Source of the DNA: Amphiscolops sp. MND2022
Taxonomy: Eukaryota
Assembly: GCA_964187785.1 (NCBI GenBank)
Contig: OZ076409.1
Coordinates: forward strand, 83,886,001-83,950,000
Direction: 5' to 3'
DNA length: 64,000 bases
Part shown: positions 18,518 to 53,254 of the stretch, one piece after another
Layout of the letters: each line of letters starts with the position of its first letter
How positions within the stretch are numbered: position 1 is the first letter of the stretch
Made by a program: the position numbers and the translations under genes
Notes under the pieces: model-generated
Database searches by the model: none
The model's input: only the letters and a program-made list of their open reading frames with translations
Told to the model about the DNA's origin: nothing

Positions 18518-21072
18518 AGCAGGTCGAAACCATTAAAATCGATCAATCTTCTTGAAAGACGTTTTCTTCTCGATCGATCAGATCCATGGTTGGAATGATT
18601 TGAGGTCAGAATCAATTGCAAACATCCAAAACTAGAAGTGTTATAAATTTTGATAATTGGTCGTATTTTCAATGGGAAAGCAATATTTGCATTGGCAGTT
18701 TTTGGGACATAGAGCTACTTGATGCGTAGAACACTATCGATTCTTAAAATTTAAGCAGAGATGCTAACTAATACATGTAGTTTTGAAATGTGAAAAAAAC
18801 GGGTTTATATTTTGAAGACTCAAGACTTCAAACCTGGACCACTGATGATCAGGGATGAACTGCAATATGGTAATGATTGCCAAAAACACCTAAGCTGCTC
18901 TCAATTTTGGTGTGAATTCTGATCTCAATTGACACCTCTGATTGTGTTTGTCACCTTATGAAGCATAGACCCTCAAAAAATGCACAAAATACAGGCTCCC
19001 CAAGTATCCTTGAGGGGGGCTGTCGTTCATAAGGTTCGCAAAACGAATCGAATTGATTGAAAAACACGAGACTTCGTACAAAACCTCTGATTTTGCGATG
19101 ACTTCGTTCCGGATTCATGACTACTCGATCATTATTTTTTCGTTGCGCCCTCCGAAAGTGCATTAGGTTTTGTTAGAAGATGCAGTCGGTCAAAATACTT
19201 AAGTTACTTGAGTTAAGGTCTTTTTTCAATGACATTTTTGATTTTTTTGCTATGACACACTGGGACGAACTTGAACATTAATGATGCAGTACCAACGAAA
19301 GCTAGAACAAGACACTCACTGAGCACCGGGATGTTTTCCGCCTTAAATTCTTTAGTGAAGTAAAAAAAAATTACGGCTTATGTGTAACCGATACACTACG
19401 GAACCTGCACAAAAAATTCTGGAACCTCAAATGTTTTGATACTTTTTGGCCGTTTTTGTTGGCTTTGGGCACTTTCTTTCAGCAAATCTCCAGCTTCCTC
19501 TACATTAAACATGTTGCGTAGCTACTCGTTTTGATATTTGTACCCACAAACACCTTCAAAAATTGTATTGAAATTACATGAAATGGTCAAAATTCCAAAA
19601 ATTTTTGGGCCGCACTTACTTTTTTTGTTTTTTTTTAGCACTTTCCATTTCCGGCACATTTTTTTTTCAATAAATATCGAATGCCTCCAGAAGTAAATTT
19701 GTAGTTGAATTCTGTTTGTTTGAATACTTTGGAAACACCTTCATTTTTGAGTAAAAAATTGGAAGATGGCAAAAGCTGGGAAAAACGGGCTAAGATTGGT
19801 TTTTTCTAAAGTGGCTTCGAAGAACGCTTCCCGGCTGTGTTTATGTGAACTGACAGTCTCCGGCTTTCAAAGACGCTCAAAAAAACGAAGCGCGTATATT
19901 TTTATTGACCTTTTTGTAAAATCCCGGACACAGAGAAAGATCCGATCATCGTATGTTACTTCAAATAGAAGTTTTGAAACTTCGAAATATGAAAACGAAA
20001 CTCGACTTCTTATACTGCTGGGATGAACTTCTCGTCACGAGAATAAGCCAATTACTTTTAGATCATTAAATTAGAGAACAGACAAGACTCTCCAACCGAG
20101 TTGAAGATGATAATTTATGCTTCATATTTGAAACGCTCTATATTTTTGATATCTCTTTTCAAATACTCTGTCGCCAATCAAGCTGAGCTGACAAAATTAT
20201 TTTGACCGAATGTTTAAGGAGATGAAACTTTCAAACTTTCGAACAAGCAGCAAAAAACTTGAACCAACTTGAATCGAATTGAAAATCGATGTTCTTCAAA
20301 AATCAATTTTTGAATCGGCATCTTTTTCAATGTATTTTACAAACACGAAGCTGATCAGTTTTAGTTGTCAAAAACTTATAAGCTTGTGCTCATTCTAATT
20401 TAAAAGTACTCATAAATTGGGTTACACAAAATTGGGTATAGGTTTACCAGGAAATTGGGTATAGGTTTACCAGGAAAAGCAAAATGAAATCGCTTTTTTC
20501 TTTCAACAGACCTCTTTTGTATCCTTTGTAAGTGGAAGTGCAGGGTTAATTTCAGATGCTCTTGGGTTGCTACTGATTTACAATCTCTTGTAACCTTCGT
20601 TTACTTTGACAAACTTAAACGGTCCACACCGGAAAACTCTCTTTGAGATCCTTGGTCTTCTGTTTCAGATTGGTCCTGCAAATGAACCCAACAAAATCGA
20701 AGTCTCTTCAGTCGAAGACCTCATTCTAATTTGACTCATAGATATTAGATTTGGCACAGCAACCAGAAATTCCTGCAATTGTAATTTAAATTTTAAGATA
20801 TTTTTGCTTTGAAGATTGAGATAATGTAACGCCGAGCGAAATTTTCACATGTAGAACAATCAATTTCATTGACTCACAATATCTAGGATCAAGAACCAAT
20901 TGACAATCGTCAGCCAATACAACGGAAACTTTCGAGAGTTTTGTACAATCTTGATGTTTTCAGACAAAAATTGGAAATTTCAAAATAGTGAATTACAGGT
21001 TCTTAGATTCTTACATTCAACTTTTCTAATTATCATATTTCTGGGATTCATTTTGATATAACTGAATTTGAC

Positions 21073-22711
21073 TGTCGCAGGCTGCCGCCTGCGATGGCAA
21101 CATCTACACAATTGACCATACGAACCCAATCGCCCTACCTGGGACGCTCCCATTGTAAACCAAAACTTTCAAACATTTAGTATTATTTTGACATGTAGTA
21201 TTGATTGATGAATTGTATTGTTATTTCTTATGTAAAATACATTTGACAGCAAGCCATACTGATAGGCAGAAAGGAAACGTGTTCAAATGTTTGCCTGTTC
21301 AGTATGGCTAGCTAAGCCGCCTATGGTCAATTGGCCAATCAGAGTGCAGTTTGTAATAGCCATCTTATTACTTATTACGTAAATGTGCTAATAACTATTT
21401 AGAATGGACCAATGCGGCCAATTAACTTTGCCGGCCTTATTGTGCTCTGATGCTATCCTTGAATGATATTCAGTAACTACAAATAGGACGAAAGCGGCTA
21501 TGCGACATAGCCGTCCCTATTCACTGTATTAATTGTCTTGGTGCTATACAGTAAATAAGGCCTATCACGGCCGGTTGGCACGATGAATACTCAAATGCTG
21601 TATACTTGCCATATGAAATTGGTATTCCAGTTAATTAGTGGTTTGAAGATGCAAATAACCCACCCCATGCAATAGACAGATATATACACTGTTAACATGT
21701 AATTGTTGCTTTCTCATATTATGATGGGACTGAATTAGAAAACCCCAACGGCCATCAGCCGAATAGGGCCTTCATGAATTGTTGAGCATGTAAACTGTTG
21801 CTTGCATGAATTTTACCTGTAAACAAATTGACCCATATGTGGAAGAGACTTGTCGGGCCCTTTGATCTAGCCGCCCGCACAAGTCTAAAATGATGTCATG
21901 TTGCTATTAATAGTTTCACTGTATCTATTTTTAGCTTGTGTGCTATTTTTAGTAACATGACTGACGAAATCTCAGATGTCATGCTAACTTGAGTATAAAT
22001 ACGCCCAAGTTGGCCGTAAGACTCAGTTGATTTATGATACGGTTGATATTCAGTTACTCTTATGCGATTTGTACAAGAATCACTGTAAACCAAGTTCTAT
22101 ATTGTCCACAGGAACAATTCACATATTTACTCCTGGATAAACATTTTCAATGCCTTCTACAAGGAGACAAAAGGCCAAGTCTAGGAAATCAAGAGAATTA
22201 GATATGTTGTCCGACTACGACAATATGGACGTAATGTTAGGTGAGAGAAATTCTAACTCTATAGAAAGAGAGCTCGACAGTTTGATTAACGTCCCCGAGG
22301 GACAACGGGACTTTCAGTCCTTTCCGAATAGAGAAAATATATCTCAAGAGAACGAAATCAGAGACATTGATAGTAGAAATGAACCAGTTAGGGAAAGTAG
22401 GCTAATTGAGTCTATCAATACACTATCTGGAGAAATGAATGCTAGAATGTCACGCGAGATGGAGGCTATGATGGACCTAGTGCAATCGCAGATTAGCAGG
22501 ACCATTAGTTCTGCTATAAGCGAGAGGATTATCCCAGAGATACAAAATATGGTAGAAAATTTGCCTTTGGGTCAACATGGCGTTGAGCCATGTACGTCCG
22601 CAGATGAGGACGGAATCAGAAATGTATGGAAGAACGCAAATACGAAATTAACAAAGAAGGATTCAAGGTCCGCCTGTGATCTGAGAGACCGCGTGGACGT
22701 TAGTCCTTACA
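21073..22711 (+). repeat. 5' LTR (1639 bp)
   Basis: TGTCGCAGGC...TAGTCCTTACA. About 27 differences from the 3' LTR by manual comparison, including a 1-bp indel. Confidence 0.97.
21996..22003 (+). promoter_or_regulatory. Candidate LTR TATA box
   Basis: TATAAATA about 150 nt upstream of the gag ATG; present in both LTRs. Confidence 0.4.
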
Positions 22712-22729
22712 TGGTGACAGGAGCTACCG
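22712..22729 (+). other. Primer binding site
   Basis: TGGTGACAGGAGCTACCG directly after the LTR end; TGG complements the tRNA CCA. Primer tRNA not identified. Confidence 0.75.
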
Positions 22730-23843
22730 ATTTCCAACAGCCGATTCCTGAATTCCTCACAGGACGAATTCACTTTCAGCCAGACCTCCAAAGACAAGAA
22801 TCCACTCATGATACAACTCTGGATACAATTCTGCCAATAGCGGAGCCTGCTCCTGCAGAACAGCCACAAGACCCTATCAACCGATTGGCAGATGTCCTGG
22901 TAATCCTCCAAAATAAACCACACTCGATGACAATTAGACCAGTCACGACGAACCCCATGACATTTGACGGCAAAACAGAGAAATTCGAATTGTTTGAAGA
23001 TTTATTTCATACAATGATAAAGATGCAGCCCGCTATGACGGAACAAATGAAAATAAATCATTTTCATTCACTGCTCCGAAAAGGAGCCCTGCAGACTTTC
23101 CGAAATACAAACTCCATAAACCGTCAAACATTAGAGGACGTATTGGTCATATTCCGCAGAAAGTACGTCAAACCTGAGTCCCAGGCCACAGCTAAACACA
23201 AATGGCATAGACTCATCTTCGATCCGAACACAATGAAACTACCCGATTTTCTTGAGGAACTCAACCAGGGTGCCGAGAAAGCCTTTGGGGAAAACGCCAA
23301 AAGCATGATCGACAGTCTCTTGTATGCTAAATTACCCCCAAAACTCAAAAGATCAGTAAATATGGCTCGACTGGAAAACGGGACCTACGAGGAGATTGTG
23401 GCACATCTGGAACGAGAACTCGAGTTAAACGCATTAGAAGAATCTGACGACCTACCCATTGCTACAATGGCTTCGTCGTCCAACAAATCCCGAAATTTAC
23501 TATCCAATGGCATTGACACCAACAAAATTAACCAATGCTCATACTGCAAGGCAGAGGACCACTTCTGGAAAAATTGTCCAAAACTGAAAAAGTAGAAAGA
23601 ATCAGAGGCCAAAGATGGCAAGAGGCCTCAACGACAAACCTACCCAGAATGCCCCACCTGCAGGAAAACCAATCATCCAGCAGAGAAATGTTGGCGTGGC
23701 GCTGGTGCCCACCTTCGTCCAAGAAGAAATAGACAAGACTCCTCCAAAGATACGGAGCCCTCTGAAGACGAAGGCACTCGCACCAAGAATGAAAAATCCA
23801 CAACATCCTCATCAGGCCAATCGAATTCCAAAAAACCTGAATC

Positions 23844-23850
23844 AAAAAAC
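23844..23850 (+). promoter_or_regulatory. -1 ribosomal frameshift slippery heptamer A AAA AAC
   Basis: X XXY YYZ heptamer immediately before the gag TAA. A -1 slip gives KKLILPRLQ, which is the pol frame (ORF 23856). Confidence 0.8.
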
Positions 23851-26800
23851 TAATTTTGCCACGACTCCAAATCTCTGATCAAATGTCGATACGACAATAT
23901 GTCATATCAGACCCAGCTACTATCGCCTACAAGCAATCACAAAAGGACATCACAGGGACCCCATCGACTGTCTGGCAGCAGCAGATGGTGGAAGCCTGTA
24001 CTCAAACTCAATACATTATCCACAGTGACCACCCATTCTTATATCGACGTAACAACCTCACTAAAGACTCAGAAACCCAATTCCGACCCTTACAAACTGT
24101 CGAAGACTACAACCCCCAATACTACGACCCCGAGTACGACAAAGACCCGTACTGGGATGATGATTCATACGATAAACACAATTTACAATTTCGGAATGAT
24201 GACTACCCGCCAACAGACGATGAGGATGACCCTGACATAGTAGACACCATACTGTCCCGGGCACTTATCGAACCGTGGCAACCAAATTTTGATGCAATCA
24301 AAGATCAGCCACATGCAGAAGAGACACAGGCCACACCTGGCCTCCTCGACGAGACAGCCTTCATACACGTCCTTGTAACTAAAGAGGGAGAACCAGCATA
24401 TATACCCTTATCCAGAAACCTCGGACTCAAATACAAAAAACAGATGCTAAATTTCCTGATGGACTTTGGGGAACTAACCATAGACGGCCTCATAGACACT
24501 GGAGCTCACTCCAGCGCAATAACGGAAGCAGACCTCAGGAAAAAACGTCTCTTGGCGCCCCAATCCATAGTCAAAGTGGGACCTGCCCCGACTCTTCAAT
24601 TTATGGTCGCAAACGGACAATTGGAAACCCCAAAGAGCACTGTTGAACTCAAGTTTGAAGTCGGAGATATCGAATTCCATGAAATATTTATAGTAATGGA
24701 AAAACTGACTGGCCCTATCATAGGACTGATGTTCCTCCAGAGGAATCATACAGTACTGGACATGCGACAAGGCATACTCAATTTCCCATATTTCTCGATG
24801 CAACTCAAAACGGCTGACCATAAATATTCCAACGTACTGGAACCAATACTTAACCCAGACGATATCACAATATCACCCAATGACCGTTTCTTAGTAGAGA
24901 TCAAATCCCAAATCTACAATGAAAATACGGTCACAGGAGTGCTACAGCCCAGTGATCTCCTCCATGAAGAAGGAGACATCACATTCTGTGCCGCGGTAGT
25001 CACATTGACTAGTGGATTTGTCAACGTTCATATCAACAATTTCACGGACCAACCGGACAAGCTTAAAAAGGGACTACACATAGCAAACTTTTCTGTACTA
25101 ACACCGGAACAGATGAAACACGTCAAACCGATTGACCCGGTGTCCACATGGCATCTCCTCAATGAAAATGAAGAGGATGCGATCTACTATGTCAGTAGTC
25201 TACTCAAGGCTAATCGGAACAATGACCAATATGAACAGTACTGGATTCCCACGCCAGAAAACCCAGGGGACGAAGATTCCCATACCCCCATCCAACGACG
25301 AATTCTTCAAGAATTACGAAACCTTCAAGAAGCTGTACAATTGAACCCTCAAAATGATGATGAGTCACGCCGCAAATTCCTTAGCAATTTCGACTGGAAA
25401 GACTCCATGCTGCAACAACACGAAATCTAAAAGATGGAATCGTTTTTAGTCGGATACCATGACATATTCGCACGACACAGATTTGACATCGGAATGAATG
25501 AAGAATTCACGGTCAAACTGACCCCTAAGGACGATTCGCCCGCTTACAGCCAAAGTCTTCCAACTCCACTCAATTTAAAAGAGGACATACTCGTCGAACT
25601 GGCCCTCTTACACAAATATGGCATTATAACTACACTGCCATTTTCGAAATACGCCAGTCCCATATTTGCACAGAAAAAGCCGAATGTTAAGCTAAGACTA
25701 CTAGTCGACCTGCGGAAAATTAACAACCTCATTTCGGATGACTATATAAACAACAATCTTCCGGTTAGCACCCTAACGGACGCTGGACAACATATGGCAG
25801 GAAAGAAACTGTTCTGTAAACTCGACTGTTCACAGGCATACCACTGCCTACCAATGGCGGACCAAAGGTCCGTTGAGATGCTTGCGTTCAATTTTGCAAG
25901 CCGCACCTTTGCGTACAGACGACTTGTTCAGGGCCTTAGCAGAGCATTATCAGCTTTTTCAAGTTTTATGAGGGAATACCTCGATAAAGTTATCAAAGCA
26001 GACCAATGTGCCCAATATGTCGACAACATTGGCATAGCTGCCAACGACGCAGATCATCTCATCATAAATTTGAAAGCAACTTTTGAGTGTATCAGACATG
26101 CGGGCCTTAAACTAACGATGCACAAATGTCACTTCGGGGCAACGGAAATCGATTTCCTGGGAAAAACATTTACCCCGGAAGGTGTCAAACCACAAAAGGA
26201 GCGAATAACAAACTTTCTAGAAAAAACCAAATTCCCCAAGTCTAAAAAGGCTCTGCAAAGATATCTTGGTTTCCTCAATTATTACAGGAACTATATCCCA
26301 AGACTATCTGAAAAACTAGCCCCTTTCTTCCAACTTCTCAAAAAAGACGAAAAAGTCCTGGTGACCACAGAACTAAAACAACAGTTCAATGAAATCAACC
26401 GGGACTTCGACAAATGTAGCCAATTGGCCCTGAAGCAACCTTTGCCAAACAAGCAACTGGTCCTGATGACAGACGCTAGTTTCACAGCGGCCGGCTACGC
26501 CATACTTACCGAGGACGACCCAAACCAGAAATATTCATCTGTCAAAAAATCATACGCTCCAATTGCATATGGCACAAAAACTTTTGCGCCATCGCACTTC
26601 AAAATGTCCATATACGCCAAGGAATTCTTAGCGATATATCACGCATTCAAAGAATTTGGACATATTTTCTGGGGAGCCCCTAAACCGATTACCATCCTCA
26701 CGGACAACAAATCGGTCACGAGATTCTTCCAGACGAAGATAATCCCTGCAACACTCTGGAATGCATGTGACTATGTAATACAATTCAACTTTGTCATAGC

Positions 26801-29075
26801 ACATATACCAGGAAAACACAACACAGCAGCCGACTACTTATCTCGCATGGAAATGGACCCCAGAGAGAAACTGGTCCTTAAAATCCGCGAAGACATAGAG
26901 ACTAAGCCCATCGAGGTCAATGTCTAATCGGCAGGCGTTGCTGAAGAGGAACAGGTTTTCTTCACGGAGAAAGATGATGAGACAGAAGCTCAAGTTTGGG
27001 AACATAAAAAACAAAGCCGAACTAACCCAATCGACCAAGAAGGCGTAATTCAAATTGACGCAATATCTGAAAATTTAGTAGATGAAATTACGAACTTTAC
27101 CCAAAAAATGCGCAGAACGAATCAAATTTTACTTGAACAATCCAAAGACCCTATACTGCGCCAACTCAAAGCCAAAATTCAAAACGAAGACTATTCTGAA
27201 GAACTACTCCAGCAAGATATCCGATACAAACACTACCTTAACAACTTGGACCGAATAGTCCTTAAAGACGAAATAGTCACACGACAAAATTATGATGAAA
27301 CTGGACAAGTCAAGTATCACCAGGTTCTCTTACCAAAACACCTTTTGACAGAATTGTTACAGGCCTTACACGGAACGGCGCACAAACACCCTGGCATATC
27401 GAAAATGTTACAAGAAATCCGACAGAAATATTACTACCCCGGTATAGCAAAACATGTTAAAAAATGGGTAGAAGGATGTGTAACTTGCGCAAAAGATAAA
27501 AGGGTTCCAAACAACACGATAACACCTGAATTGCTTAACTTGCCAGAATGGGACCTTGGACCAGAGGACGCAATGCAAATCGATTTACTCCCAAACTTAC
27601 CAACAAGCGGGGGTTACCAAACAATGATGACAGCAATAGATGTCTTTTCAAGATATCTGTTTGCCTACCCGCTAGTTGAGGCAACAGCCTCTAACACGGC
27701 AAAGGCCTTAATAGACATCATGACAAAGCACTCATATATGCCAACTACGATCATCACCGACAAAGCAACCGCTTTTACATCAAAAATTATTGCAGAGATA
27801 ACGCAAGTATTGGGAATAACCCTAAAATGTGCGACGACTAAACATCCACAAACAATTGGCAAACTCGAGAGAACTCACGCCTCATTGAAGACAAATTTGA
27901 AAATGGCCTCAGGTTAATATCGCCGTCAATGGCACAATAATTTGCCACTAGCAGTGCTCAATTATATTACAACTTATCATTCCTACATCGGTTGTGAACC
28001 AAGCAAGGTCTTTCACGGAAGAATTCCCTATAATGTTCTTGATCATAAACTTGGAAATAATCCCAATAAGGATTTCCTCCCGACGACAGAATTTGCTGAA
28101 GAATTACAACAGAGAACGAAATTTCTCATTGACAAAACGAAACACAACATTATGCAGTCCTACTTGAAATACAAGGAGTACTATGACCGAAAAGCCAAAG
28201 CAGCTCCTCTCAGCGAACAAGATTTTTGTTTTATCCTACAGCCTAAAGCGGATAATCAAGGATCAAAAATACCATTTAGAGAATATCGCTGGATCGGGCC
28301 TTATCGAATTGAAAAGGTCCGCCGGTTAAATACGAATAAAACACAGATATTACACCGAATCCGCCTGAAAAAATTTGTTCCAAACACGTCTTTAGAGGAC
28401 AAATATGCCAAAAAGAATTTTCAACCAGATGATGAAATAATCATACCGCAACCGCAAGATGATTTATACACCATCTCATGGAAAGCAGATTTTGACTACC
28501 ATGTCTTCGAGCCGAGACGAGACGATAATACGGACGAAGAATTACAAACACCAGACAGCGATGCTGGTGTCACGACTAGTGATTACGTCATTTATGACAA
28601 CGCTGATAACAACGCGGTAAGGCCGGGGACGGCCACCAGCCGAGAAGGCACAATCACACGAGACGCAAATGACGTCACCGAATTGAATGAACGAAACAAA
28701 ATGAATGAAAATGTAGCGCGACCGAGTACGGCCGCTAGCCAAGACGCACCTATAGTACATGACGAACATGACGTTAACGAGAATGCTGCGCGAGAAGAAC
28801 AAAGCAGCGAAACAGGAAGGCCGAGAACGGCCACTAGCCGAAATAGCCACAATGGTGGCAATACACCTCCTAATTCAAAAAAGAACGTGAATGACGTCAC
28901 AAATGAATTAGAAGGCGAGAAAAACTCTCTTAACGAGGGGAATGATATTACCGTGCCCGGAATATCGAATAAAAAAGCAAATGAAAAAACTGATGAAAAC
29001 TCTAGCCCTAGAGGGGGGAAATACAACCTTCGACCTAACCCCAACCCCAACTTTACTGATGAATACAGATACTAG
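23850..29075 (+). pseudogene. pol: pol polyprotein (protease, RT, RNase H, integrase) with three in-frame TAA stops
   Basis: ORFs 23856, 25434, 27108 and 27942 are all in one frame, separated by single TAA codons (25428, 26925, 27915). Motifs: LIDTGA (PR); LDCSQAYH and YVDN (RT, second Asp lost); TDAS (RH); HHCC plus IDL/TDKA/KLER (IN); GPY. Confidence 0.95.
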
Positions 29076-29100
29076 TCAGAAATGTTAAATTATGTACCTA

Positions 29101-29106
29101 TTTATT
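29101..29106 (-). terminator. Candidate poly(A) signal for the antisense gene
   Basis: AATAAA on the minus strand about 150 nt past the stop at 29254, in the AT-rich gap between the convergent genes. Confidence 0.45.
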
Positions 29107-29253
29107 TTATTGCCCGAGATGGCATGTTTTCTCACTGAGACCTTTCTGATTTACTTTAAAACAGACTAACTGCATAAATATACAAACAGAAAACTACTAC
29201 GAAGCAAATTTACAAAAGGAAAGACTAAAGTGACAAATGTACATTATGTACAA

Positions 29254-32200
29254 TTAGTCTTTAGATGAACCCTCTCGCAATTCTTGCACTGTCTTTGACA
29301 ACTCATCAGCAGGGAGATCACCGAAATAAGCAAGTTTTTGTGCTTGGCCGGCAGCCCAAATAATCTTCCGAACAGCAGTAGTGGACACAGAGCATGAGCG
29401 TGACGCAGTACTGATATCGACAACAGGAACACTTTTCAAGCTCTTAAAAGCACTGCTGAGATTCTTTAAGAATTCGGCCCGGCCAAACACGTCAGCGTGG
29501 ACCCAAGGGTCACCAGCGAAGTGCCTGGAGCTGAACTGTCCCTCTAACTCACGATACTGGGCCAAGGCGGACTCAGTTGTGCAAATGGCAATGGCTTCTG
29601 GGCAGTTTGACAAATACGACTGTGCGGGCAAAATTACTGCAGAAAGTCGACAACTGGAGCTAGAAGTATCTACATCATGGAATTTGATGGTCGGAAGTTC
29701 CTGATGGGCCTCAGTGATACAAAGACAGCATAACCGGAAGAGGTGGAAAAGCCTTGAACGGCTACGAAACGATGGCATAACGATAAGGAAGTCCAACATA
29801 TCATATATTGTGTTGGGAGCATTCTTGACAGTGCCACAAGTATTTCGGAAAAGATCGATGAACTCGAAATACTCTTCTTGGTAGTCACTCTTGACGGCTA
29901 GGTCCACCCAACCACGGAGGTGGAAGCTATCAAACAGGGCGTTGAAGCAGAAGGTAGCCTGTTCCAAAGGAAGAGAGAGCAACACGTGTGGGTCGAAGCA
30001 ACCCATACCATGTATGATATCAGCGGTGAAATGGATGTCCTCCAACAAAGCTTCCAATAGAGAGACAATGTAGGCGCGAGCTTCTGTCCCAAATTTTTCC
30101 TTCTCCTTAGCGACCATTTCTTCTAGACTGGCAGTGGGAGCCTTGTCAGCAGGGAAACGCTTCACTTTAGCCTGGCAAGCAGCATCAAGGTCAACGGTAA
30201 ATTTGAGTCGATTCAAAAAATCGCGGCAAGATAGCTGTCTCAGATCGTCAGGGCACAGATGAAGCAACTTTGTCCACTCAATGTCTCCGGGGAAGTACTT
30301 GGGCAGAATGGCCCGGTGGCACAATTTTCTGACGTAACGGCAATACTGTCCGTGAACGAACAGTGCTGAGACTCGTCGCTTGGCCAGACTACGCTCAAAG
30401 CATTTGGTATCTAAACAAACGAAGTCAAAATTGAGTCCTAATATGTGATAATCTAGTGAGGTCTCCTACCTTCTCAATCACTAATGGCAATTAAGATCAA
30501 ATTCCAACATCAAAGGAAAAGAGACAATTAGGGCTCAGCTTTACAATGAAGAAAAATGACTAACATTCACGGACTAGAAGGGACAAAAGTTCTAATTTAG
30601 CGGTGAACAAATCGTCCTGGATGATCTCCCACTCCAGACTTTGTGGCTAAAATGAAAAATTATATGAGAACTGGGTCGACAAGAAGGACTACTTCACATG
30701 AGAGTGTTCAGGAAATTAAATGGACAAACAGAAGACTTGTACCTTGTTTCTCACTCCTTGCATTACTTGAGTTGGTGCCAATTTTGTCAAGTAGTCGTGA
30801 ATGGTAGACCAATTCTTTATGAGTTCAGTGCAAATTGTCGGGACCTTTTTGAGGTCAAGGTCACAAGCTGCGGATGCCTGCAAAAGAATAATCCTCATAG
30901 TCATGCTATAAGTCAGGAGGACAAAGGACCTATGGGCTGCAATGAAAATCAGAGAAACGATGGTTACATGATGTAATGCCAACAGAAATTTAAGTTGGAC
31001 CCACCTTACACAACTCTGGACATTGTGGGGCCCATGGCTGGCTTGGACTACCGCGGAGAAAGACGACTAAGTATTTCAACTGCGAGAACATACCAATGCG
31101 GCCAAAGACATGGGTAGTCTGAAGGGCGTTTGGGTGCATCAGGTCAGGCAGAGAAAAGGCTTCAAAGCGGAAGGGATATTGGATTCCGTGCTCATATAGT
31201 TTGGAAGATTCAAGGGCCTGGAACACCATAGAGGAACAGCCGGAGATGCTGACTAAATTCGGCTTGGAGGAAACGCAAGACAACAAGCACGATATGGCAG
31301 ATAAGTAGCAATCAGGGTACGCATCAGACTGCAGATGCCGGTGGAGCTCTACACGGACGAGTGAGTCCCCCCTCCAGAAGCGGATTGACATACACCGATA
31401 GACACCAGCTGTGGTGAATTCAATGGAATAAATCCCAGTAGCAATGACTTGACTGGAGATGTCAGCTAGCCCCCGCATGAAAATGTCCTGGAAGATGTTC
31501 TGAAATGGAAACGGATAATTAAAGAAGTTCGAGACCCATCGACCAACCGGGCCTATATTTAGATATGAACTACAGAACTACTTACGGTGAGAGTAGCAGG
31601 TCCCCAATCGAATGAGGAGAAAAGGGCTTGATGGTTGGTGAACACACCGACCCTTGTCCATAAATTCTGCATGAGCGAGAGGTTGCCATCTTGAGGAACA
31701 AATGTTCCAATTAGAGAAATGAGGGTGCTAGTTCGCAAATCACTGGGATTGGTGATTCCCCCTATGCTGGCCATGTAGTCGTCGTAAAATGGATAACGGC
31801 CTCCCGCATCAATGAGTGGAGCGTCTATGAAGCGGGGCTTCTCCCTTTCCAGCTCGAAAGGAGTAAGGACATAACCGTCCTTCCCCCTAACTTGATGTGT
31901 GACGATTCCAGTAATACTGTCTGTCTCTTGCAAATGGACATAACGCCATTTTTGATCTTTCCGCAGATGCCCTTCTTTCTGGTAATGGCGCAATATCTCT
32001 CTCGCCCCTTTAGAGTAGATGGATACGTTAGTCTTACACAACATACAGTAGAACTTGAATTTGTTGTGAATCGGGTCAACGGGTCCAGTCACAAAGGTTC
32101 GGGTCCATTGGATGCCCTTGAAGTACGCATCTTTCATAACCTTCCCTGGTTTGCTCAATAATTTCCTTTTCTTCCGAGGAGGGCTACGTGGCAATGTCTC

Positions 32201-33466
32201 CATATCTTTAGTCCGGCCAAATGCAGATAACGGTTGGTAGTCGGTGCTGCTGTACCCACTGCCCGATGTAGGAGTAGCGTTATCAGCTCGAGACGTGCTG
32301 GTACGAATCCCCAAGCTTGTTACGGGGGTGAGTGTTAGAGGATCTGTTTCGCTAACTACATCTGTGCCAGAAATCGACCCAAGCTGGTAAGGATCCTCGT
32401 CAGAGTTTATGGCACCACTCGTATAGCCATCACTCACATTCCCTTTTTGGCTGTCTTCCTCCCCTGAACTCTCAGCAAGATGGCGGGCTGGGGTAGGACA
32501 CCTTCGGGGCATTTTCCTCTTTTTGTCCTGAGAAGTCCCCGTTGCGGCATGTAAAAGAAGGGATTTCATCATATGATATGAAGAAAGAGCGCTTTCGTCG
32601 GCAACAGTTCTGAGGATAGCGTGCATCTGCTCCTGATTGAACGCAACGGTAGAGTGCCCAACTGGTAATCGGATTGGTGTTGCGGCAGTAAAATATTTAC
32701 GGATGATGGTTCGTCCTTTGGCTGACAACTGTCTATCGCTGGATTCAAGCCTAGCCCGGTAAGCTTCTTGCTCCTCATCACTGTTCCCAGCCTCTAAGTG
32801 AAATTCCCCTTCAAGGTCCTGAAAATCCTCAGGATTCAATGTAACGTTCCGGGAAACAGGAGGGAAAGCAGCAACTCCAGAGCTGTCCAATAACTCCTCA
32901 GCATCAGTTGTGTCACCATAAAGTGGTGCAGCCCCTTCTTGGGAGGCAATCTCTTCTTTGTCATTAGGCCCAGTGGGGCTAATTGGCCGACTAGGAGTTA
33001 TAACGATGGCTTCTGAGACCGAGACCTTCTGGAAAGCAAAGTCCATGGTGGACATTCGGGGCACTGCACCTTGTTGAGCAGGGAGGATTGAAGCTGATTC
33101 TGGCTCAGGCAGGCTCATCTCTGCGACTGTTCTTTCGATGAAAGCAGTAACGCTCTCATTAGTGGATCGACTACAATTGGAAGTCTGAGAAGACGGACGA
33201 GGAGGGTCAGTAGTATTCGCCGACCCAATGTGCTCAAGGTTATCTTCGTTGGAATTATTGATTGTGGGGACAGTGGATTCTGGCAAAGCCTTCGTAGACG
33301 ACAGCTTAAACAGAAGAAAATAAATTTTTGCGGGCAACTTCCTGAAAACGTGTCCATATGTACTGCAGTAAAACCTTCCGGAAGTGAAAAGAAAGCGATA
33401 TTGAAATCGTTTGATGAAAAGGACAGGAAGTACCTGAACGAGAGGAAGAGCCTTGATCAAGCTCAT
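29254..33466 (-). CDS. Antisense spliced accessory gene, 1151-1267 aa, NLS-like motif plus BED-like zinc finger
   Basis: Exons 33466 (or ATG 33118)-31586, 31499-31010, 30936-30743, 30646-30565 and 30410-29254. Introns are 86, 73, 96 and 154 nt, all GT-AG and phase-matched (0, 1, 0, 1). The spliced frame is open to the stop at 29254. Confidence 0.8.
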
Positions 33467-33805
33467 TTCCGTTCAAAATTAAAAAGACCAGATAGCTCAC
33501 CTGAATTAATTGTCCAATTGGAGATTGGATTGAGCAGAAATGGAAGATCGTTCCGATTGAGATGATTTGTTACTGATTTTCCTGAAGGAGCTGGCGCAGG
33601 ACGGTAGAATGCCCAGGTGGGACCGTATCGGAAAGGGTGTAAAATTGTGGCTATTGTAGTCAAGCCTGATTCCAAAGCGAGAACTGCTGTTGACCCAAAG
33701 GGCAATCGATAAACCAGACCAGGAATGGTGAAAGCGATTTAAAGGGTCCTCTAATGAAATAAAGATAAGAAGAAACTAAAAACTGACTGTGATACTGAGT
33801 ATACA

Positions 33806-34066
33806 ATGGATAAATACGAATATGGAAATGTAACAATTAATGAATTGGAAGAAGACGAGAGTGATTGCAAGAGCAAAGTTGGAGTTCGTGGCAAACTGGA
33901 TTTGATGTCAAATATTTTTAGAATTATGAGAATTATTGTGTGGATGGAATCTGCCAGAGAAATCCACATTAGTTTTCGAAACATGCATTTTCATTATTTT
34001 GTTATCTTGGTTATTTCATTATTTTTAGTTCTTTTATTATTTCCTTATTTGGATTATTATTTTTAA
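33806..34066 (+). CDS. Small ORF with hydrophobic C-terminus (86 aa), uncertain
   Basis: ATG-initiated; ends FVILVISLFLVLLLFPYLDYYF, which could simply reflect T-rich sequence. Confidence 0.2.
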   Translation: MDKYEYGNVTINELEEDESDCKSKVGVRGKLDLMSNIFRIMRIIVWMESAREIHISFRNMHFHYFVILVISLFLVLLLFPYLDYYF

Positions 34067-34488
34067 TTCCACCATTTTGGAAAGCGGACAGAGTGGGCGA
34101 TTCCCATTGGCTGTCGCGACGATGCGCCGCGCGTGGCCTTAAAACTTCATCACCCTCTCTTGAAATTCTCAAGTGGATATCAAGTGGAGATAAACACTAG
34201 ACGAAGTCCTTGAAGGTTCTTTGCCGACTTAGGCAAGCTGAAGTTGATCGTCGGTCAACAGAGCGGAAGGCGGTCTATATCAAAGAACATCTTGGAAAGT
34301 TTCGTCAATGAAACATGATGCGGGAAACGAAAGACCGGGAAAATGTGAAGCAAAACCATCGAGAAATTGAGAAATGAAAATCGCCATTTGCTTCCTAACT
34401 TTCAAACTAAACAGTTACTCTACTCAAACCGAATTAAAATTGTCCTATTGCTTTCAAAATTGCAAAAAAGATAATAAAAGATAGATTT

Positions 34489-35328
34489 ATGGCTCAACGA
34501 TTTCCTGAAGACTTCATTGGCGCAGCGCCTGAGGGCGTAGATATTATCTGCCTGTCCAGCGACGAAGAGGAGGGAATGTGTGACCTAAGCATGACTTCGG
34601 TGCTCGACCTTCAACTGTCATCGGAAGACGAAGAAGAAATAGATGACGAAATCATGATGATGGCCCAGTGTGTCGAGATGGAATTATCATCACCCATCCC
34701 AGTGCCTGGTCCATCCTCAGCGCTGAAAATTAGAAACGAGGCCCCCCGATATAACCCACCAAGGTACGGGACCTCCGGGGCGAGATTTGCAACAAGGCCT
34801 ACTCTTGACCAATCCTTCTTCTCATTAGGAAAAGGAAACGGCCCAATACGGCGAGACGACCGAGTGCGCAATAATCACCCTATCAAGCTGTGTAGGGAAA
34901 TCATTCCCATGGTGGACACTCCCATGTCGCCCCCACCAGAAGAGAAAGGACCAACTTACGACACCTATTCAGCGGACGGTCAGGGCGAGACTACACAGCA
35001 GTCATTGGACGCAGTTGCAAACCATTTCCAAGGAAGGGAGATTGAGACGAACAATCCTATGGCAAATTACTCAGATTGCGTGATATGTGGGAAATCTACA
35101 TTACAAATCCAGTGTGAAGCAGTCACAGATTACTTGCGCAAGACGGCCATTTTGGGAGAATCAGCAGATCAACTAGAAGCACGCAAAAGAGCTTTTTTGG
35201 AAGGAATGCAAGTGGGCACTTTCTTATTACTACCAGGGGGAGTGTCGCAGGCTGCCGCCTGCGATGGCAACATCTACACAATTGACCATACGAAGCCAAT
35301 CGCCCTACCTGGGACGCTCCCATTGTAA
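34489..35328 (+). CDS. Sense accessory ORF (279 aa) overlapping the PPT and 3' LTR
   Basis: ATG-initiated and uninterrupted. Acidic N-terminus with VDIICLSSDEEE and VLDLQLSSEDEEE, and a CVIC pair. The last 28 codons and the stop lie in the LTR. Confidence 0.75.
   Translation: MAQRFPEDFIGAAPEGVDIICLSSDEEEGMCDLSMTSVLDLQLSSEDEEEIDDEIMMMAQCVEMELSSPIPVPGPSSALKIRNEAPRYNPPRYGTSGARFATRPTLDQSFFSLGKGNGPIRRDDRVRNNHPIKLCREIIPMVDTPMSPPPEEKGPTYDTYSADGQGETTQQSLDAVANHFQGREIETNNPMANYSDCVICGKSTLQIQCEAVTDYLRKTAILGESADQLEARKRAFLEGMQVGTFLLLPGGVSQAAACDGNIYTIDHTKPIALPGTLPL
35235..35242 (+). other. Polypurine tract
   Basis: AGGGGGAG abutting the TG of the 3' LTR. Confidence 0.75.
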
Positions 35329-36882
35329 ACCAAAACTTTCAAACATTTAGTATTATTTTGAACATGTAATATTGATTGATGAATTGTATTGTTATTTCTT
35401 ATGTAAAATACATTTGACAGCAAGCCATACTGACAGGCAGAAATGAAACGTGTTCAATTGTTTGCCTGTTCAGTATGGCTAGCTAAGCCGCCTATGGTCA
35501 ATTGGCCAATCAGAGTGCAGTTTGTAATAGCCATCTTATTACTTATTACGTAACTGTGCTAATAACTATTTAGAATGGACCAATGCGGCCAATTAACTTT
35601 GCCGGCCTTATTGTGCTCTGATGCAATACTTGAATGATATTCAGAAACTACAAATAGGACGAAAGCGGCTATGCGACATAGCCGTCCCTATTCACTGTAT
35701 TAATTGTCTTGGTGCTATACAGTAAATAAGGCCTATCACGGCCGGTTGGCACGATGAATACTCAAATGCTGTATACTTGCCATATGAAATTGGTATTCCA
35801 GTTAATTAGTGGTTTGAAGATGCAAACAACCCACCCCAAGCAATAGACAGATATATACACTGTTAACATGTAATTGTTGCTCTCTCATATTATGATGGGA
35901 CTGAATTAGAAAACCCCAACGGCCATAAGCCGAATAGGGCCTTCATGAATTGTTGAGCATGTAAACTGTTGCTTGCAAGAATTTTACCTGTAAACAATTT
36001 GACCCATATGTGGAAGAGACTTGTCGGGCCCTTTGATCTAGCCGCCCGCACAAGTCTAAAATGATGTCATGTTGCTATTAATAGTTTCACTGTTTCTATT
36101 TTTAGCTTGTGTGCTATTTTTAGTAACATGACTGACAAAATCTCAGATGTCATGCTAACTTGAGTATAAATACGCCCAAGTTGGCCGTAAGACTCAGTTG
36201 ATTTATGATACGGTTGATATTCAGTTACTCTTATGCGATTTGTACAAGAATCACTGTAAACCAAGTTCTATATTGTCCACAGGAACAATTCACATATTTA
36301 CTCCTGGATAAACATTTTCAATGCCTTCTACAAGGAGACAAAAGGCCAAGTCTAAGAAATCAAGAGAATTAGATATGTTGTCCGACTACGACAATATGGA
36401 CGTAATGTTAGGTGAGAGAAATTCTAACTCTATAGAAAGAGAGCTCGACAGTTTGATTAACGTCCCCGAGGGACAACGGGACTTTCAGTCCTTTCCGAAT
36501 AGAGAAAATTCATCTCAAGAGAACGAAATCAGATACATTGATAGTAGAAATGAACCAGTTAGGGAAAGTAGGCTAATTGAGTCTATCAATACACTATCTG
36601 GAGAAATGAATGCTAGAATGTCACGCGAGATGGAGGCTATGATGGACCTAATGCAATCGCAGATTAGCAGGGCCATTAGTTCTGCTATAAGCGAGAGCAT
36701 TATCCCAGAGATACAAAATATGGTAGAAAATTTGCCTTTGGGTCAACATAGCGTTGAGCCATGTACGTCCGCAGATGAGGACGGAATCAGAAATGTATGG
36801 AAGAACGCAAATACGAAATTAACGAAGAAGGATTCAAGGTCCGCCTGTGATCTGAGAGACCGCGTGGACGTTAGTCCTTACA
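35243..36882 (+). repeat. 3' LTR (1640 bp)
   Basis: Direct repeat of 21073-22711, followed by TSD TTGAC. Confidence 0.97.
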
Positions 36883-36944
36883 TTGACTATTATCAAGTCT
36901 TGTTCAAGGCAATTTTTAACAATTCACCTAAAAGCGTGAACTGA
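36321..36944 (+). pseudogene. LTR copy of the gag N-terminus reading out into flanking DNA
   Basis: Near-identical to the first 187 gag residues, then 20 flank-encoded residues (IDYYQVLF...). Confidence 0.9.
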
Positions 36945-37559: not shown

Positions 37560-38720
37560 TATTCAAAAGTTTCAGCATTGTATTCGCTTTGATCAGTTGG
37601 CACAACATATGAACGGGAAGGAAAGGCGTTCCAATAAAAGGTGTAGAAAGCCAGCATGATGGAAACATAGTTCATAATTATTTTCCGCCCATATTTCATA
37701 TGGGGAAGGAAAATTTTTAAATCAAACGGTTTTTTACAAAATTTGCCAAGCACCAAATTTATATTTAACTTTAAGGGTGTTACCCATAGAATTCGCCTCA
37801 CATAGATTTAGCTTCGTGCGATTTGTATTTATGGAGATTTCTCGACCTTTTCAGTTGAACCCCAAGGACCCCAGAATTACCCAAAAATTGTAAAAACTGC
37901 TAAAACTTCCAAATTTTTTTAGGTTTTAACGCAATTTCTGTCAATTTTTCCATAGATGTCGTGGATCAGAATGTTGAACAGGTTCAACAAGACAAGAATT
38001 TGTTGTCCAGTAGTCGTGTATGAAGAAATTCAATTTTTGGAAAGAAAAAGGCCCAAAAATGACAAAAAACCAAAACTTTCCTGATTTTTGATGGTTTCAT
38101 GCAAATTTTGTCAAAAACTTCAATAGACTTCGTTTGACTAGAATGTCAAAAATGCTCAACATGGCACTAATTCGTGTCCAGTAGGCTCTTCTGAAGAGTT
38201 TATTACAGTTTTTTATGTGAAAATGTCTCAAACTAACACCAAAAAAGACAAAAACCCTAAAATTTTTAATTTTCAAACATTTTTTGCATTTTTCACTAAT
38301 TTTCGACAGACTTCGTCAACTAGAACGTTGAAAAGAGCCAACATGGAAAGAATGTGTTGTCCAGTATGCTTATAAAAAAGATAAATGCAGTTTTTCAAAC
38401 GAAACTGTCCGGAATTGACATCGTAAAAGACATTGAAATAAGTTCCGATTTTCACTATTTTTGTTCAAATTTTGTCAAAACATTGATGATCTTCGTGGAC
38501 TAAAATGTTAAAACGCCTAAAGCATTGGCAAATTTGTTGTATCTGTGAGCTTTCGTCTAGAGATAAGTTCAATTTGTATAAGAAAACGCCCCAAATTAGG
38601 CCTGAAGTTTCAAAACGTTTGAAAATTTTGTCGTTTTGGATGCAATTTCTGTACATTTTCCACGAGATTTCGTTTCAAGTTCCAACACATTCAACTCAAC
38701 AACGAAAAAACTAGCTTTGA
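37560..38720. repeat. Inverted homologue of the 2600-4740 repeat
   Basis: Shared terminus described under 2600-4740; boundaries approximate. Confidence 0.6.
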
Positions 38721-43830: not shown

Positions 43831-44247
43831 CAATAGGGTGGAGGAACTGATACAAAGGATATGGTCCGGGCCAAACCACCATGACACCAGCATAGTTTAC
43901 CTCTCAGGGTTGCCGGTCCCGAGAAGAGGGAACAGTCTTGAAGGATGCTCTCCAGCCTGAGTCCAGTCTGTAATTCCTGAGAATAACGGGCATCTTTCTC
44001 GGACCTTCGCCTCGGACCACCGTTTGGACAGCTTTCAAAATCAATGCCAAGAATAAACAGTGTAAATTTAGTTCTTCAGCGTGATATGGGAAAAACTTCT
44101 AAAACTTGTTATAGTTTCCAAAGTTGCCAAAACTAGCTTTCCGGCTATCAAATACAGCTAAAACCAGCGACAATAGATGAAAGCTTGCATGAATCAGGCA
44201 GACCACACAGCTACAAGCTGGGGCGCAGGGGCTTCAAGTACCCAAAA

Positions 44248-44691
44248 GGGGTCTTTAGACAAAAAGACATTTCTCCGGTTCTAGCTAATTAAAGTAGCAT
44301 AATGCTGAAAGAAATAAAAACCGTGATTAGCACCTCAAAAAAGTCTTTTTGAATGTTCTCTAAGGTCTCAGGCTATCTCGTTCTTCATGTTCCCGCTCGG
44401 TCTGCTCTCGTCTTCGTTTTGCATTGAAAATGGCACAAACAGCGAAAAGAGCAATCACATGTTCACTGCCACGTCACATTGAATTAGAGTGTTTGACAAA
44501 TCTTCTGAACATGTCAAAATTGCAAAATCGGCTGTAACATAGGGTGCCGTTACCAAAGCTACTTTAACATAAGCTTTTTAGACGGTATTCGATTTTTAGT
44601 CGTTGCCCTTTCTTTTGAACGTTCGTTCACTATTCGTCTCTGTGAATTAGCGTGACGATCAACGAGCTGGCAGCTTTTCGAAGCAACGGAT
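44248..44691. repeat. ~445-bp direct repeat, copy 1
   Basis: Aligns along its length with 46196-46642 (GGGGTCTTT...GAAGCAACGGAT), with scattered substitutions. Confidence 0.85.
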
Positions 44692-45049
44692 CTTAATGGT
44701 TATTGAGATCGGCAATGCGGCCTGTGTTCTAAGGAACTGTAAGCGACAGAGATGCGTTTGAAGAAAATATATCATAATAATTTTACACCTGTTTATCGTC
44801 ACAGCTTTTTTAGTCGACGCATTTAACTTTAAGGGAAAAAACCTGACTATTACAAAGACAAGATTTGTTCTCGTCTAATGAATGTAGAATGTATGAAATC
44901 GTCCCACGCAAATTTCAAAAACTGTGTTTTGTTCCCGTCCTTGTAAAAACTTGTTCTCAACAAGCGTCCAACGGATTACTTAATGGAAAATCAACTGATC
45001 GACCACAAGTATGAAGACTTTCTCGCGAACAGAAATACCACGAGATGAC

Positions 45050-46160
45050 GGTTCAGATTAAACATTGAACATAAAAATGTGAAAAGGCAGAAAAAAAATG
45101 CAGCCTTGATAAATAAGGACTTGAAAAAAGCTTTCGACAGTGTGTCAAAATGGCATCCTACTAAAGCCACGGACTGCTGCTATGCGGGTCTACCACTTTT
45201 TTATCATTGCGACATACCTTAACAATAGACTTCTGCGAACAACAACTGATGGCTGCTACAGTCAAGCCTTCACCCCGAAACAAGGTTTTCCACAGGTGAG
45301 TGTGATTTCACCAATACTGTTCATTTTTTACATTGCCGACATGCCCGAAACATGGTGTGGAGTGAAGTTCAAGTATGCTGACGACTCTCAGGTCCTTGTA
45401 ACGGCAGCTAACCAGAAAATTATTCAGCACATCATTCGAAGGTCTCTAACATCTGTACAACAATGATGCCGCCTGTGGCGTCTGCAAATTAATGGGTCCA
45501 AGACCGATATTTGTACTCATTAACTGTAAAGCGCAATGACTGCAATCTTTCTATCTCGACAATGAGAATTGTAAATTTTGGAGCAACAACAAAAGTCTTG
45601 GAGTTATCGTTGACGAAAAAATGACTTTCGGACAACATACCGAATCCGCTGTCGGAAGAGCAAAATGAAATAGAAAGAGCTTCGACTGTATTGCACGAAA
45701 AAGTGGGGTTTATCTAGGCGGACCTCAATCACTCTGTTCAAAAAATAATCCCCCCTCTAGTTCTTTACTGCGCTCCTGTATGGACACTGGCTAACTACAC
45801 CAGACTCAACTGTTTCCAGGGCTTCATTTCATAAAACATTTTTGGGGTCAAGTCACATTCCGAACACCAAAGCTGCGGAAGTTCTCGGGCTACCAACAAT
45901 CGACATATTATGTAAAAACACATCCGCCAAGTTCATGAATAAAACACTGGCATCAACAGACAAACTGCAACGAATGATACTGGAGAACCAGCAACGCCTC
46001 AAGTTTGTAACAACTCACTGTAACTGTTTGAAGCATTTTTACAACAATAGGAATCTCAAACTGACTGACTCTCTGTCTTACACAGTCACAACTAGTCGAA
46101 TTCATAATCTCAGAAGATGGAATGACCGATGGAACTACATGGATTTTGATACTTAATTTA
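45050..46160 (+). mobile_element. Decayed non-LTR RT 3' fragment
   Basis: DLKKAFDSV, GFPQVSVISPILF, KYADD and LGLPTID motifs, with stops and frameshifts. Confidence 0.8.
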
Positions 46161-46195
46161 AGAATCTTGTCCCCAGAGTAGAGATGGATCCAACA

Positions 46196-46642
46196 GGGGT
46201 CTTTAAACAAAAAGACATTTCTCCGGTTCTAGATAAATTAAGTAGCATAATGCTGAAATCAATAAAAACCGGGATTAGCACCTCAAACAGAGTCTTATTT
46301 GAAAGTTCTCTAAGGTCTTAGGCTATCTCGTTCTTCATTTTCCCGCTCGGTCTGCTCTCGTCTTCGTTTTGCCTTGAAAATAGCGCAAACAGCAAAAAGA
46401 GCCATCACCTGCTCAGTGTCACGCCAAATAAAATTAGAAAACTCGACAAATCTTCTGAACATGTCAAAACTGCAAAGTCGGCTGTAACATAGGGTGCCGT
46501 TAAAAAACCTACTTTACCATTAGACGTTTTAGACGGTATTCCATTTTTAGACGTTGCCCTTTCTTTTGAACGTTCGTTCATTGACCGTCTCTGTTAATTA
46601 GCGAGACGATCAATGCGCTGGCAGCTTTTCGAAGCAACGGAT
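46196..46642. repeat. ~445-bp direct repeat, copy 2
   Basis: See copy 1. Confidence 0.85.
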
Positions 46643-50825: not shown

Positions 50826-51765
50826 GTTATCGATACACCTGCTTTCTCAGCCACACTAACCACCTTTGTGGCACTAACCACCAAAGACGACTTCACACCG
50901 TTCCTCCTCCACGCCAAAGATCCTTACAATTTCTTTCGCCCATATTGTTCAATGCTGTCAGCCTCGATGACAGGAGACAGATCCCCAGCAGCAGAACATT
51001 GGATCTTTTTGAGTTCCTCATTGGCACAGAAACCACAGAGGAAAGTCCTAGAGAAGAAGTTTCGGGAATCAACGCTGGTACCCAGCTGTTGATCCAGATG
51101 ACGCAGCCGCTCTCATCAACTCCGGGCCCTGTGCATTCGACCAGATGAAAACTACCTTCTTCTTTCATCGTCGGATTTTGCGCTGAAGTTGAATTTTACG
51201 AGATGGACCCATCTTGATGGGCGTTTTAACATTTAATATATTTAAAAAGTTTATCACAGTTAGGCTGAATTAAACAACTTTGCCTACAAGAGGAGCGCGG
51301 AAGAGATGAAGAGACTGCGAAACACCTTTTTTTACTCTCAACTTTCTGAAAACAGAGAATTGTCCAGGGAAAAACTCTTCATCTATGACTTGGAAAACTG
51401 CTTGAAACTTGTTAATTCCACTACTTCTAGTTGCGATTTGCACTTAAAGAAAACGACATTGATACTAACGAGACATCAACATAGGAGATCCACCCATCCA
51501 ACGAACAACAAACTGAACTAGCAAACAAAAGAACTGATGTACTTTACTACAAAATCATGTCAACTGGTGCTAAACATGCCAGCAGAAAGGGGGCACAAAT
51601 AGAAACTACATTATTTCACATAAAACTTGTTTCTACCGGTCGACTGGTAGTAGCTGGTAAGAGTGTATTGTTGGTTCTTTTTGCTGCTTCTGGGATAGTG
51701 ACTTTCACGGGGTTTCCTCCCTTCGTTGCAGATCACTGGTTAGAGTTATAAAAAGTTTCAAAGTG

Positions 51766-53252: not shown

Positions 53253-53254
53253 TA

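Follow-up and report, generated by a model that had tools for sequence, protein, structure and literature searches.

Among plant Gypsy elements, the Retand (Tat) lineage carries antisense TRP28 open reading frames (ORFs) almost universally, and the available portion of PMC11963269 describes their origin and function as open. A comparable layout is found in a window of 64,000 nucleotides (the whole stretch analyzed) from Amphiscolops sp. MND2022 (GenBank assembly GCA_964187785.1, contig OZ076409.1, forward-strand positions 83,886,001 to 83,950,000). At window positions 21073-36882 lies a complete Gypsy-type long terminal repeat (LTR) retrotransposon of 15.8 kb, whose LTRs are 98.3% identical and have TG...CA ends. 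This element carries an accessory module of two genes, one antisense and one sense, and is probably a case of a transposase domesticated by another transposon. As in Retand, the region from pol to the 3′ LTR is long (2.9-6.6 kb in Retand, 6.2 kb here), features of env are lacking, and the antisense product is proposed to regulate the element as a DNA-binding protein, as far as that portion of the paper extends. TRP28 is described there as having no similarity to other known transposable elements and as an ORF, not a multi-exon gene, whereas the present module has four conserved introns, a likely hAT scaffold, and, in addition, a sense ORF with motifs like SUMO-interacting motifs (SIMs). Pfam scans gave no match to TRP28 (PF04195) here.

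A second point of comparison is VANC, a transposon-encoded anti-silencing factor related to MAIN, according to the accessible text of PMC13547354. VANC of VANDAL (MuDR) elements is a transposon-encoded accessory protein, as are the products considered here, which are proposed to act in trans on their own family; VANC, however, is MAIN-related and resides in DNA transposons, whereas the present carrier is an LTR element in which no target-motif arrays were seen. A MAIN/PMD-related fold is absent from the fold matches listed for the models of antisense exons 2 and 5. Bdelloid rotifer LTR elements with captured ORF3s and a dUTPase (PMC5408684) and the planarian Burro, a Gypsy-like element with extra genes (PMC6431247), resemble the present element in being Gypsy-like with extra genes and in the dUTPase-like domain between protease and reverse transcriptase (RT). 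In the text available from those papers, their extras differ, being env, a GDSL esterase, a DEDDy nuclease, or apoptosis and ubiquitin domains, and the words hAT and intron are absent from both main texts. The available part of PMC6451197 concerns Gypsy abundance in one acoel genome only and is used no further. The literature searched, which did not extend to most subscription journals, Repbase, Dfam, or supplements, contained no LTR element whose antisense gene bears introns and derives from hAT, and an earlier description is possible. Extra ORFs are common in LTR elements, and for most of them neither source nor use is established; in the present case the source can be traced, probably to a recruited DNA transposase. 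The antisense gene appears to share with hAT transposases (Hermes; Tip100/ZMYM1-like; FAM200/GTF2IRD2-like) the order of zinc finger, RNase H-like half, helical region, and C-terminal region, and differs from them in that DDE and CxxH are not kept (in a register set by eye), terminal inverted repeats are missing, and the gene is cargo of an LTR element. Known domesticated hAT genes serve the host and are not known to serve another transposon.

The accessory region extends over 6.2 kb from the pol stop (29075) to the 3′ LTR (35243), in agreement with the ~6-kb module within an LTR retrotransposon that an earlier sequence-only reading had proposed. Its two genes do point away from each other, separated by a 1.1-kb spacer, as that reading had noted; its further statement that both are intact fails for the antisense gene, which in the window copy is frameshifted near its start. 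The features of the module are the following.

29254..30410, minus strand: antisense exon 5, 384 codons and a stop, helical, structural match to Hermes 368-565
30565..30646, minus strand: antisense exon 4, 82 nt (82 nt in 39/40 copies; junctions joined in natural intron-less copies)
30743..30877, minus strand: antisense exon 3, 135 nt (135 nt in 40/40 copies)
31005..31499, minus strand: antisense exon 2, 495 nt, half domain of RNase H-like fold, structural match to Hermes 149-265
31586..33357, minus strand: antisense exon 1, family start codon at 33357, low-complexity region, basic cluster, BED-like finger
31964..32107, minus strand: BED-like zinc finger, W-x-x-x-F ... C-x2-C-x16-H-x5-H
32150..32182, minus strand: basic cluster PPRKKRKLLSK (core PPRKKRK), like a nuclear localization signal (NLS); a basic cluster precedes the finger in 108/120 relatives
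33358..34458, no strand: spacer between the diverging genes, presumed bidirectional promoter
34459..35328, plus strand: sense accessory ORF, conserved frame from ATT at 34459, first ATG at 34489, end inside the 3′ LTR

Comparison of copies indicates that the two-gene module is family-wide and under purifying selection. A 200-aa piece of exon 1, used as a query against the 1.07-Gb host genome, yields 7,891 first-look candidates and at least 150 scored matches. Among 70 loci fetched via the antisense gene as anchor, a sample biased toward carriers of the module, the integrase tail lies downstream of that gene in 69 (for the remaining one, L037, the sequence fetched did not include that flank), and the sense ORF is absent from L061 and mostly deleted in L021. 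A second sample, chosen against this bias, comprises 20 integrase matches outside the earlier lists: exons 1, 2, and 5 and the sense ORF are present in 18, and the remaining two are one copy without exon 2 and one with the integrase tail only. The region is not unique to this copy, whereas uniqueness would have counted against the sequence-only reading, and among the loci fetched there is no host-locus copy outside LTR elements. LTR pairs, found in 20/21 and 9/10 elements of two sets, are 97-100% identical, by which the family is recently active; a pol frame of at least 1,700 codons is kept in 8/21 elements. Across subfamilies, RT is 86-96% identical to that of the window copy, while exon 5 ranges from 95% down to 32%. 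The exon-5 profile matches 664 database representatives. Because the representative P0180 has no scored host-genome match above 31%, the module is likely present in another genome too. A metagenome scan returned 106 pattern matches, 0 of them confirmed.

Values of dN/dS were calculated as medians over pairs of open frames with dS of 0.15-1.5; most other pairs are saturated, and the pairs are not independent of one another. The most constrained part of the antisense gene is the finger region (0.04; 42/780 pairs), followed by exon 2 (0.06; 52/561 pairs), exon 5 (0.08; 56/496 pairs), and the N-terminal part of exon 1 (0.10; 56/780 pairs), with exons 4 and 3 at 0.17 and 0.24. The sense ORF gives 0.13 (63/276 pairs), and the integrase tail, for comparison, 0.23. 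Medians of 0.04-0.24 for the module are far from the value near 1 that would have undermined the sequence-only reading. Within the sense ORF, pN/pS comes to 0.12 for the SIM region and to 0.11 for the CxxC domain, which lies 5′ of the polypurine tract (PPT), and since the latter value is obtained before the PPT, conservation of this ORF is no by-product of its overlap with the LTR.

As had been read from the sequence, the antisense gene has a predicted spliced structure, with five exons and four GT-AG introns, and unbroken copies predict a protein of ~1,210 aa. In an alignment of 40 copies (L037 left out), the GT/AG dinucleotides are kept at 316/320 positions, and introns vary between 62 and 179 nt while exon lengths stay fixed; exon 2 measures 495 or 486 nt in 36/40 copies. 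Intron 3 is precisely lost in L075-L077, intron 4 in L113 and L115, and intron 2 in L115. These losses in sister copies bear out the predicted junctions and suggest that a spliced antisense RNA once existed and was reverse-transcribed. The start motif of the family, M-D-[ST]-[FY]-S-G, is in frame in 33/40 copies. In the window copy it begins at 33357, but a frameshift shortly after it puts the remainder of exon 1 in another frame; the ORF start at 33466 is an artifact of this separation. Loss sites in different subfamilies (L075:3359, L113:2963, L115:2963, and L115:3359) fall exactly at predicted junctions.

The two genes do not travel as one unit. In the exon-5 tree the window copy falls with L003 and L005, in the integrase tree with L012 and L013, and in the sense-ORF tree with L012. 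Cross-gene clades were tested in 12/21 elements with groups drawn from the trees of other genes and with quick trees, and all five are rejected (p-AU <=0.002). From these trees, the antisense and sense genes behave as separately exchangeable cassettes, variants of which have been swapped between elements.

Both the NLS-like motif and the zinc finger of the sequence-only reading are recovered in the antisense protein, as the PPRKKRK cluster and the C-x2-C-x16-H-x5-H finger. A long low-complexity region comes first, followed by the basic cluster and then the finger, the pattern of which is present in 23/23 aligned copies and 111/120 database relatives. Together, W..F and C-x2-C-x16-H-x5-H make up what we take to be a BED pattern, and the finger region has no match to Pfam zf-BED. 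A nuclear DNA-binding role fits these motifs.

Downstream of the finger, structure models were built exon by exon. The exon-2 model (pLDDT 71.6) has the order α-β-β-β-α-β-α, a predicted RNase H-like half domain that corresponds to the catalytic fold of a hAT transposase, has RNase H-like folds as its best structural matches, and superimposes on residues 149-265 of Hermes (8edg) with Z 5.1 and an rmsd of 3.7 over 103 residues. The exon-5 model (pLDDT 82.7) matches Hermes 368-565 with Z 5.0 and an rmsd of 3.8 over 140 residues, which is rank 2 of 48,161, rank 1 being a 63-residue helical match. The two Hermes matches are colinear, both lie downstream of the BED-like finger, and the spacing of 125 residues between them fits the 103-residue gap in Hermes. 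In the Atlas, 23/30 matches fall in the set whose best cluster has the hAT dimerization domain in 60% of its members, and the values for the hAT dimerization region are 0.90-0.92. On the strength of these results, the antisense gene is likely to descend from a hAT transposase, an origin that the sequence-only reading had missed. It is no hAT transposon in itself; in the window, the only inverted repeat pair around 29254-33357 is an AT-rich match of 12 nt.

Pfam gives no meaningful family for either gene, PDB sequence searches contain no match below E 0.028, and a comparison of exon 5 with longer proteins found none. Matches to ribosomal L24e in the PDB sequence searches were rejected as chance. 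A second look at the Foldseek match list for exon 5 does not show Hermes among the matches listed. The host genome holds at least 150 matches to the hAT dimerization domain and 0 to a hAT-subfamily motif. When profiles of exons 1, 2, and 5 were run against 20 host loci picked for hAT in search of a donor, they matched only a neighboring copy of the same LTR family. Host hAT transposase frames of 597-697 codons occur at five loci (L041-L045), none of them close to the accessory gene.

The catalytic registers were set by eye, using what we believe to be the Hermes residue numbering. At the end of the fourth strand, the place of the second D of DDE, D or E is found in 0/28 copies. At the site expected for the catalytic E, extrapolated from the Hermes alignment, E occurs in 0/107, and one residue earlier it occurs in 22/107. 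Candidates for the first site are E27 (acidic in 28/28) and position 29 (acidic in 2/28), and the first acidic residue of the triad may survive as E27. The reference for CxxH is the invariant C279 and H282 of the hAT alignment; by eye, H282 corresponds to H122, present in 28/28 copies, and a C three residues earlier, in the place of C279, is present in 0/28. In this register the second D and the E of the DDE triad and the cysteine of CxxH appear lost. If the origin is hAT, the antisense protein has very probably given up catalysis, and taken together with the models it is likely a disarmed, domesticated hAT descendant.

Two SIM-like acidic motifs, a [ST]P-x-SPP motif, and a CxxCG domain are found in the sense ORF, the last 28 codons of which pass through the PPT into the 3′ LTR. 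Among 50 open frames from 71 loci, scored with patterns written after the alignment had been seen, the first SIM-like motif (hydrophobic-SSD/E) is present in 31, the second (D-x-D-I-x-V-I-A-type) in 42, [ST]P-x-SPP in 48, and CxxCG in 42. The acidic motifs resemble SUMO-interacting motifs, and the product is a likely SUMO binder. The sequence-only reading had placed an ORF with such motifs at 34489-35328; its motifs stand and its start does not, the conserved frame beginning at ATT 34459. An I-A-K-K block (34459-34488 in the window) lies in frame ~10 codons 5′ of the ATG in 81/91 loci, every one of which has A at -3 and G at +4, a Kozak-like context. Within these 81 loci, an AG lies no more than 6 nt upstream in 6 and an in-frame upstream Met occurs in 5. 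The Ile codon of the block is ATT in 54/60 distinct contexts, while the other Ile codons of the same frames are distributed 323:312:284. A near-cognate AUU start at 34459 is probably the simplest reading of this conservation, the alternative being a signal at the DNA level. An Atlas search with the C-terminal part of the ORF gave no usable match, and neither Pfam nor the Atlas provided a fold or family. In a complex predicted without alignments, residues 110-279 of the sense ORF score 0.00 against three separate exon products, with the partner fold uncertain, a result that speaks neither for nor against binding.

These features can be brought together in one account, to which we assign a probability of about 0.42: the module would act in the nucleus, with a DNA-binding scaffold and a SUMO binder, to keep the family transcribed in the face of host silencing. 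A hAT gene would have inserted backwards into an ancestral LTR element. Its introns, lying on the strand opposite to the packaged RNA, would survive each round of retrotransposition, being retained because the antisense orientation shields them from removal in genomic RNA, and recombination now and then with cDNA of the spliced antisense transcript would produce the precise intron losses. A promoter in the 1.1-kb spacer would drive both genes. The ~1,210-aa protein would enter the nucleus, bind element DNA via its BED-like finger, and oligomerize on the transposase scaffold without cutting, and the small AUU-started sense protein would bind SUMO via phosphorylatable acidic SIMs and blunt SUMO-dependent silencing. 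A role in self-activation or anti-silencing can be assigned to the module only tentatively. The full chain, in which an LTR lineage has domesticated and disarmed a multi-intron hAT transposase as an exchangeable DNA-binding module throughout its radiation, with a non-AUG SUMO-binding partner against silencing, is somewhat doubtful when taken as a whole. Should the module counter SUMO- or small-RNA-based silencing, it would be the LTR-element counterpart of VANC, and such anti-silencing could help explain how a family of this kind fills a 1-Gb genome. Four introns kept through retrotransposition come with hundreds of natural variants at hand, and the conserved AUU start and the ORFs that span the two LTR borders are peculiar in themselves and open to test.

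Several results weigh against this account. For exon 2, Hermes ranks 28th and is tied with many RNase H-like folds; structural Z scores of ~5 lie in the range rated possibly chance by the alignment tool; and in the Atlas neither the recognition score of 1966 nor the 124-149 shared features reach the reliability marks. Foldseek gave no match at E <= 0.001 in the PDB and viral libraries, profile-profile comparison, run five times against Tip100-like and host hAT alignments and a further 12 times with trimmed input, gave no significant result (best probability 1.4%), and Pfam hAT families match 0/123 exon-5 sequences at E <= 0.1 (PF05699, 0/123). Exon 2 keeps the acidic residues D13, E27, and E97 in 28/28 copies, and a rewired active site is possible. 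The SIM-like motifs are short and were scored with post hoc patterns. VANC-like target-motif arrays of at least 12 nt are absent from the window; repeated 8-mers exceed shuffled sequences in most of 20 scored elements and are mostly AT-rich. Finally, the free reassortment of the two genes between elements weakens the case for a tightly paired complex, and with it the earlier proposal that a DNA-binding protein and a SUMO partner form a dedicated pair.

A different use of the same parts, which we consider less probable, is that of an integration helper or tether, in which the hAT-derived protein would attach to host chromatin or to the ends of the element's cDNA and the SIM protein would connect SUMOylated chromatin with the integration complex, so as to steer or boost insertion. 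In hAT transposases the BED finger contacts DNA close to the termini of the element; here, constraint is strongest on the finger region (dN/dS 0.04), and bases 1-15 of the LTR hardly differ between subfamilies. The conservation of the LTR end is, however, also explained by the overlapping sense ORF and the needs of integrase. No chromodomain was detected by Pfam in the three integrase tails scanned, which would leave room for a tether, yet accessory variants reassort with integrase variants, and the 5-bp target-site duplications flanking most copies examined have no common sequence by eye.

Self-restraint, with the antisense protein or RNA repressing the element and so limiting copy number or timing expression, is unlikely. 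SUMO binding often goes together with repression, and the antisense orientation and DNA-binding anatomy would suit such a role. PMC11963269, in its available portion, likens the plant antisense ORFs to the antisense regulators of HTLV/STLV. The family is, however, very abundant (7,891 first-look candidates with one exon) and recently active, and a trans-acting repressor would let module-free copies spread, whereas 19/20 integrase-anchored copies keep most of the module.

That the antisense protein still cuts, for example to open target DNA or resolve intermediates, is quite improbable. The RNase H-like fold of the exon-2 model and the invariant E27 (on the first strand), H122, and D/E at 13 and 97 in 28/28 copies would be consistent with a rewired nuclease; the canonical second D and E are absent in the by-eye register, the exon-5 model is coil after residue 228, and the element keeps its own integrase, with the 5-bp duplications flanking most copies examined.

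It is likewise very unlikely that the antisense gene, although real and selected, derives from another RNase H-fold gene, whether of the host or of a different DDE superfamily. Such a source would accord with the lack of a significant sequence or profile match to hAT, and for exon 2 the matches to ISCth4, integrases, and Pelota are as good as that to Hermes. Only Hermes, among the rows listed, matches both exons colinearly, with a BED-like finger preceding the matches, and the Atlas points to hAT-type families. A neutral passenger, that is, a nested DNA transposon or one-off capture useless to the element, can be dismissed despite a hAT-rich host genome (at least 150 dimerization-domain matches) and a frameshifted window copy, given strong purifying selection with saturated synonymous sites, conserved splice sites, a module found across deep subfamilies, and no flanking inverted repeats.

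The remainder of the element has the structural features of Ty3/Gypsy, including TG...CA LTRs, a short target-site duplication, a primer-binding site (PBS), a PPT, and the order of pol domains, with Pfam matches in the window pol following the Gypsy order protease-RT-RNase H-integrase. Its parts are as follows.

21068..21072, plus strand: 5′ target-site duplication TTGAC, repeat copy at 36883-36887
21073..22711, plus strand: 5′ LTR, 1,639 bp, TG...CA, 98.3% identical to the 3′ LTR
22150..23595, plus strand: gag, ATG inside the LTR, early stop in this copy
22712..22724, plus strand: PBS TGGTGACAGGAGC, directly after the 5′ LTR by position, gag frame reads through
23842..29075, plus strand: pol (protease, dUTPase-like, RT, RNase H, integrase), split between several frames in the window copy
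35235..35242, plus strand: PPT, overlapped by the sense ORF
35243..36882, plus strand: 3′ LTR

Both gag and pol of the window copy are broken. In the LTR pairs compared, TGGTGACAGG stands directly 3′ of the 5′ LTR (one pair is only partly aligned). Codons 1-187 of gag and the final 28 codons of the sense accessory ORF are both contained in the 5′ LTR, and the gag frame continues through the LTR end and the PBS. The third ORF has neither a transmembrane helix nor fusion-protein features of an env-bearing retroelement, and no Pfam match to an env family was obtained for the element parts scanned. The earlier claim that env features are lacking holds for hydrophobic segments, the maximum Kyte-Doolittle value over 19-residue windows being 1.32 across all parts, and of furin-type R-x-[KR]-R motifs one is present in antisense exon 1 and zero elsewhere.

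The gag start inside the LTR places 187 codons in each LTR (22150-22711 and 36321-36882), and the same layout is seen across subfamilies. A dUTPase-like domain between protease and RT (~24850-25100 of the window; L082, L091, L089, and L100) is above the Pfam cut-off in 2/5 pol frames tested (E 3.7e-6 and 5.4e-5). The available text of PMC5408684 calls dUTPase rare in retrotransposons. Outside the element, the window contains a dispersed 1-kb repeat in inverted orientation (3693-4720 and 37678-38670, 69% identical), local direct repeats of 250-540 nt with 86-91% identity at 44242-46642 and 51749-53475, and, at 62086-63037, a tandem array of at least 7 copies of a unit of ~121-123 nt.

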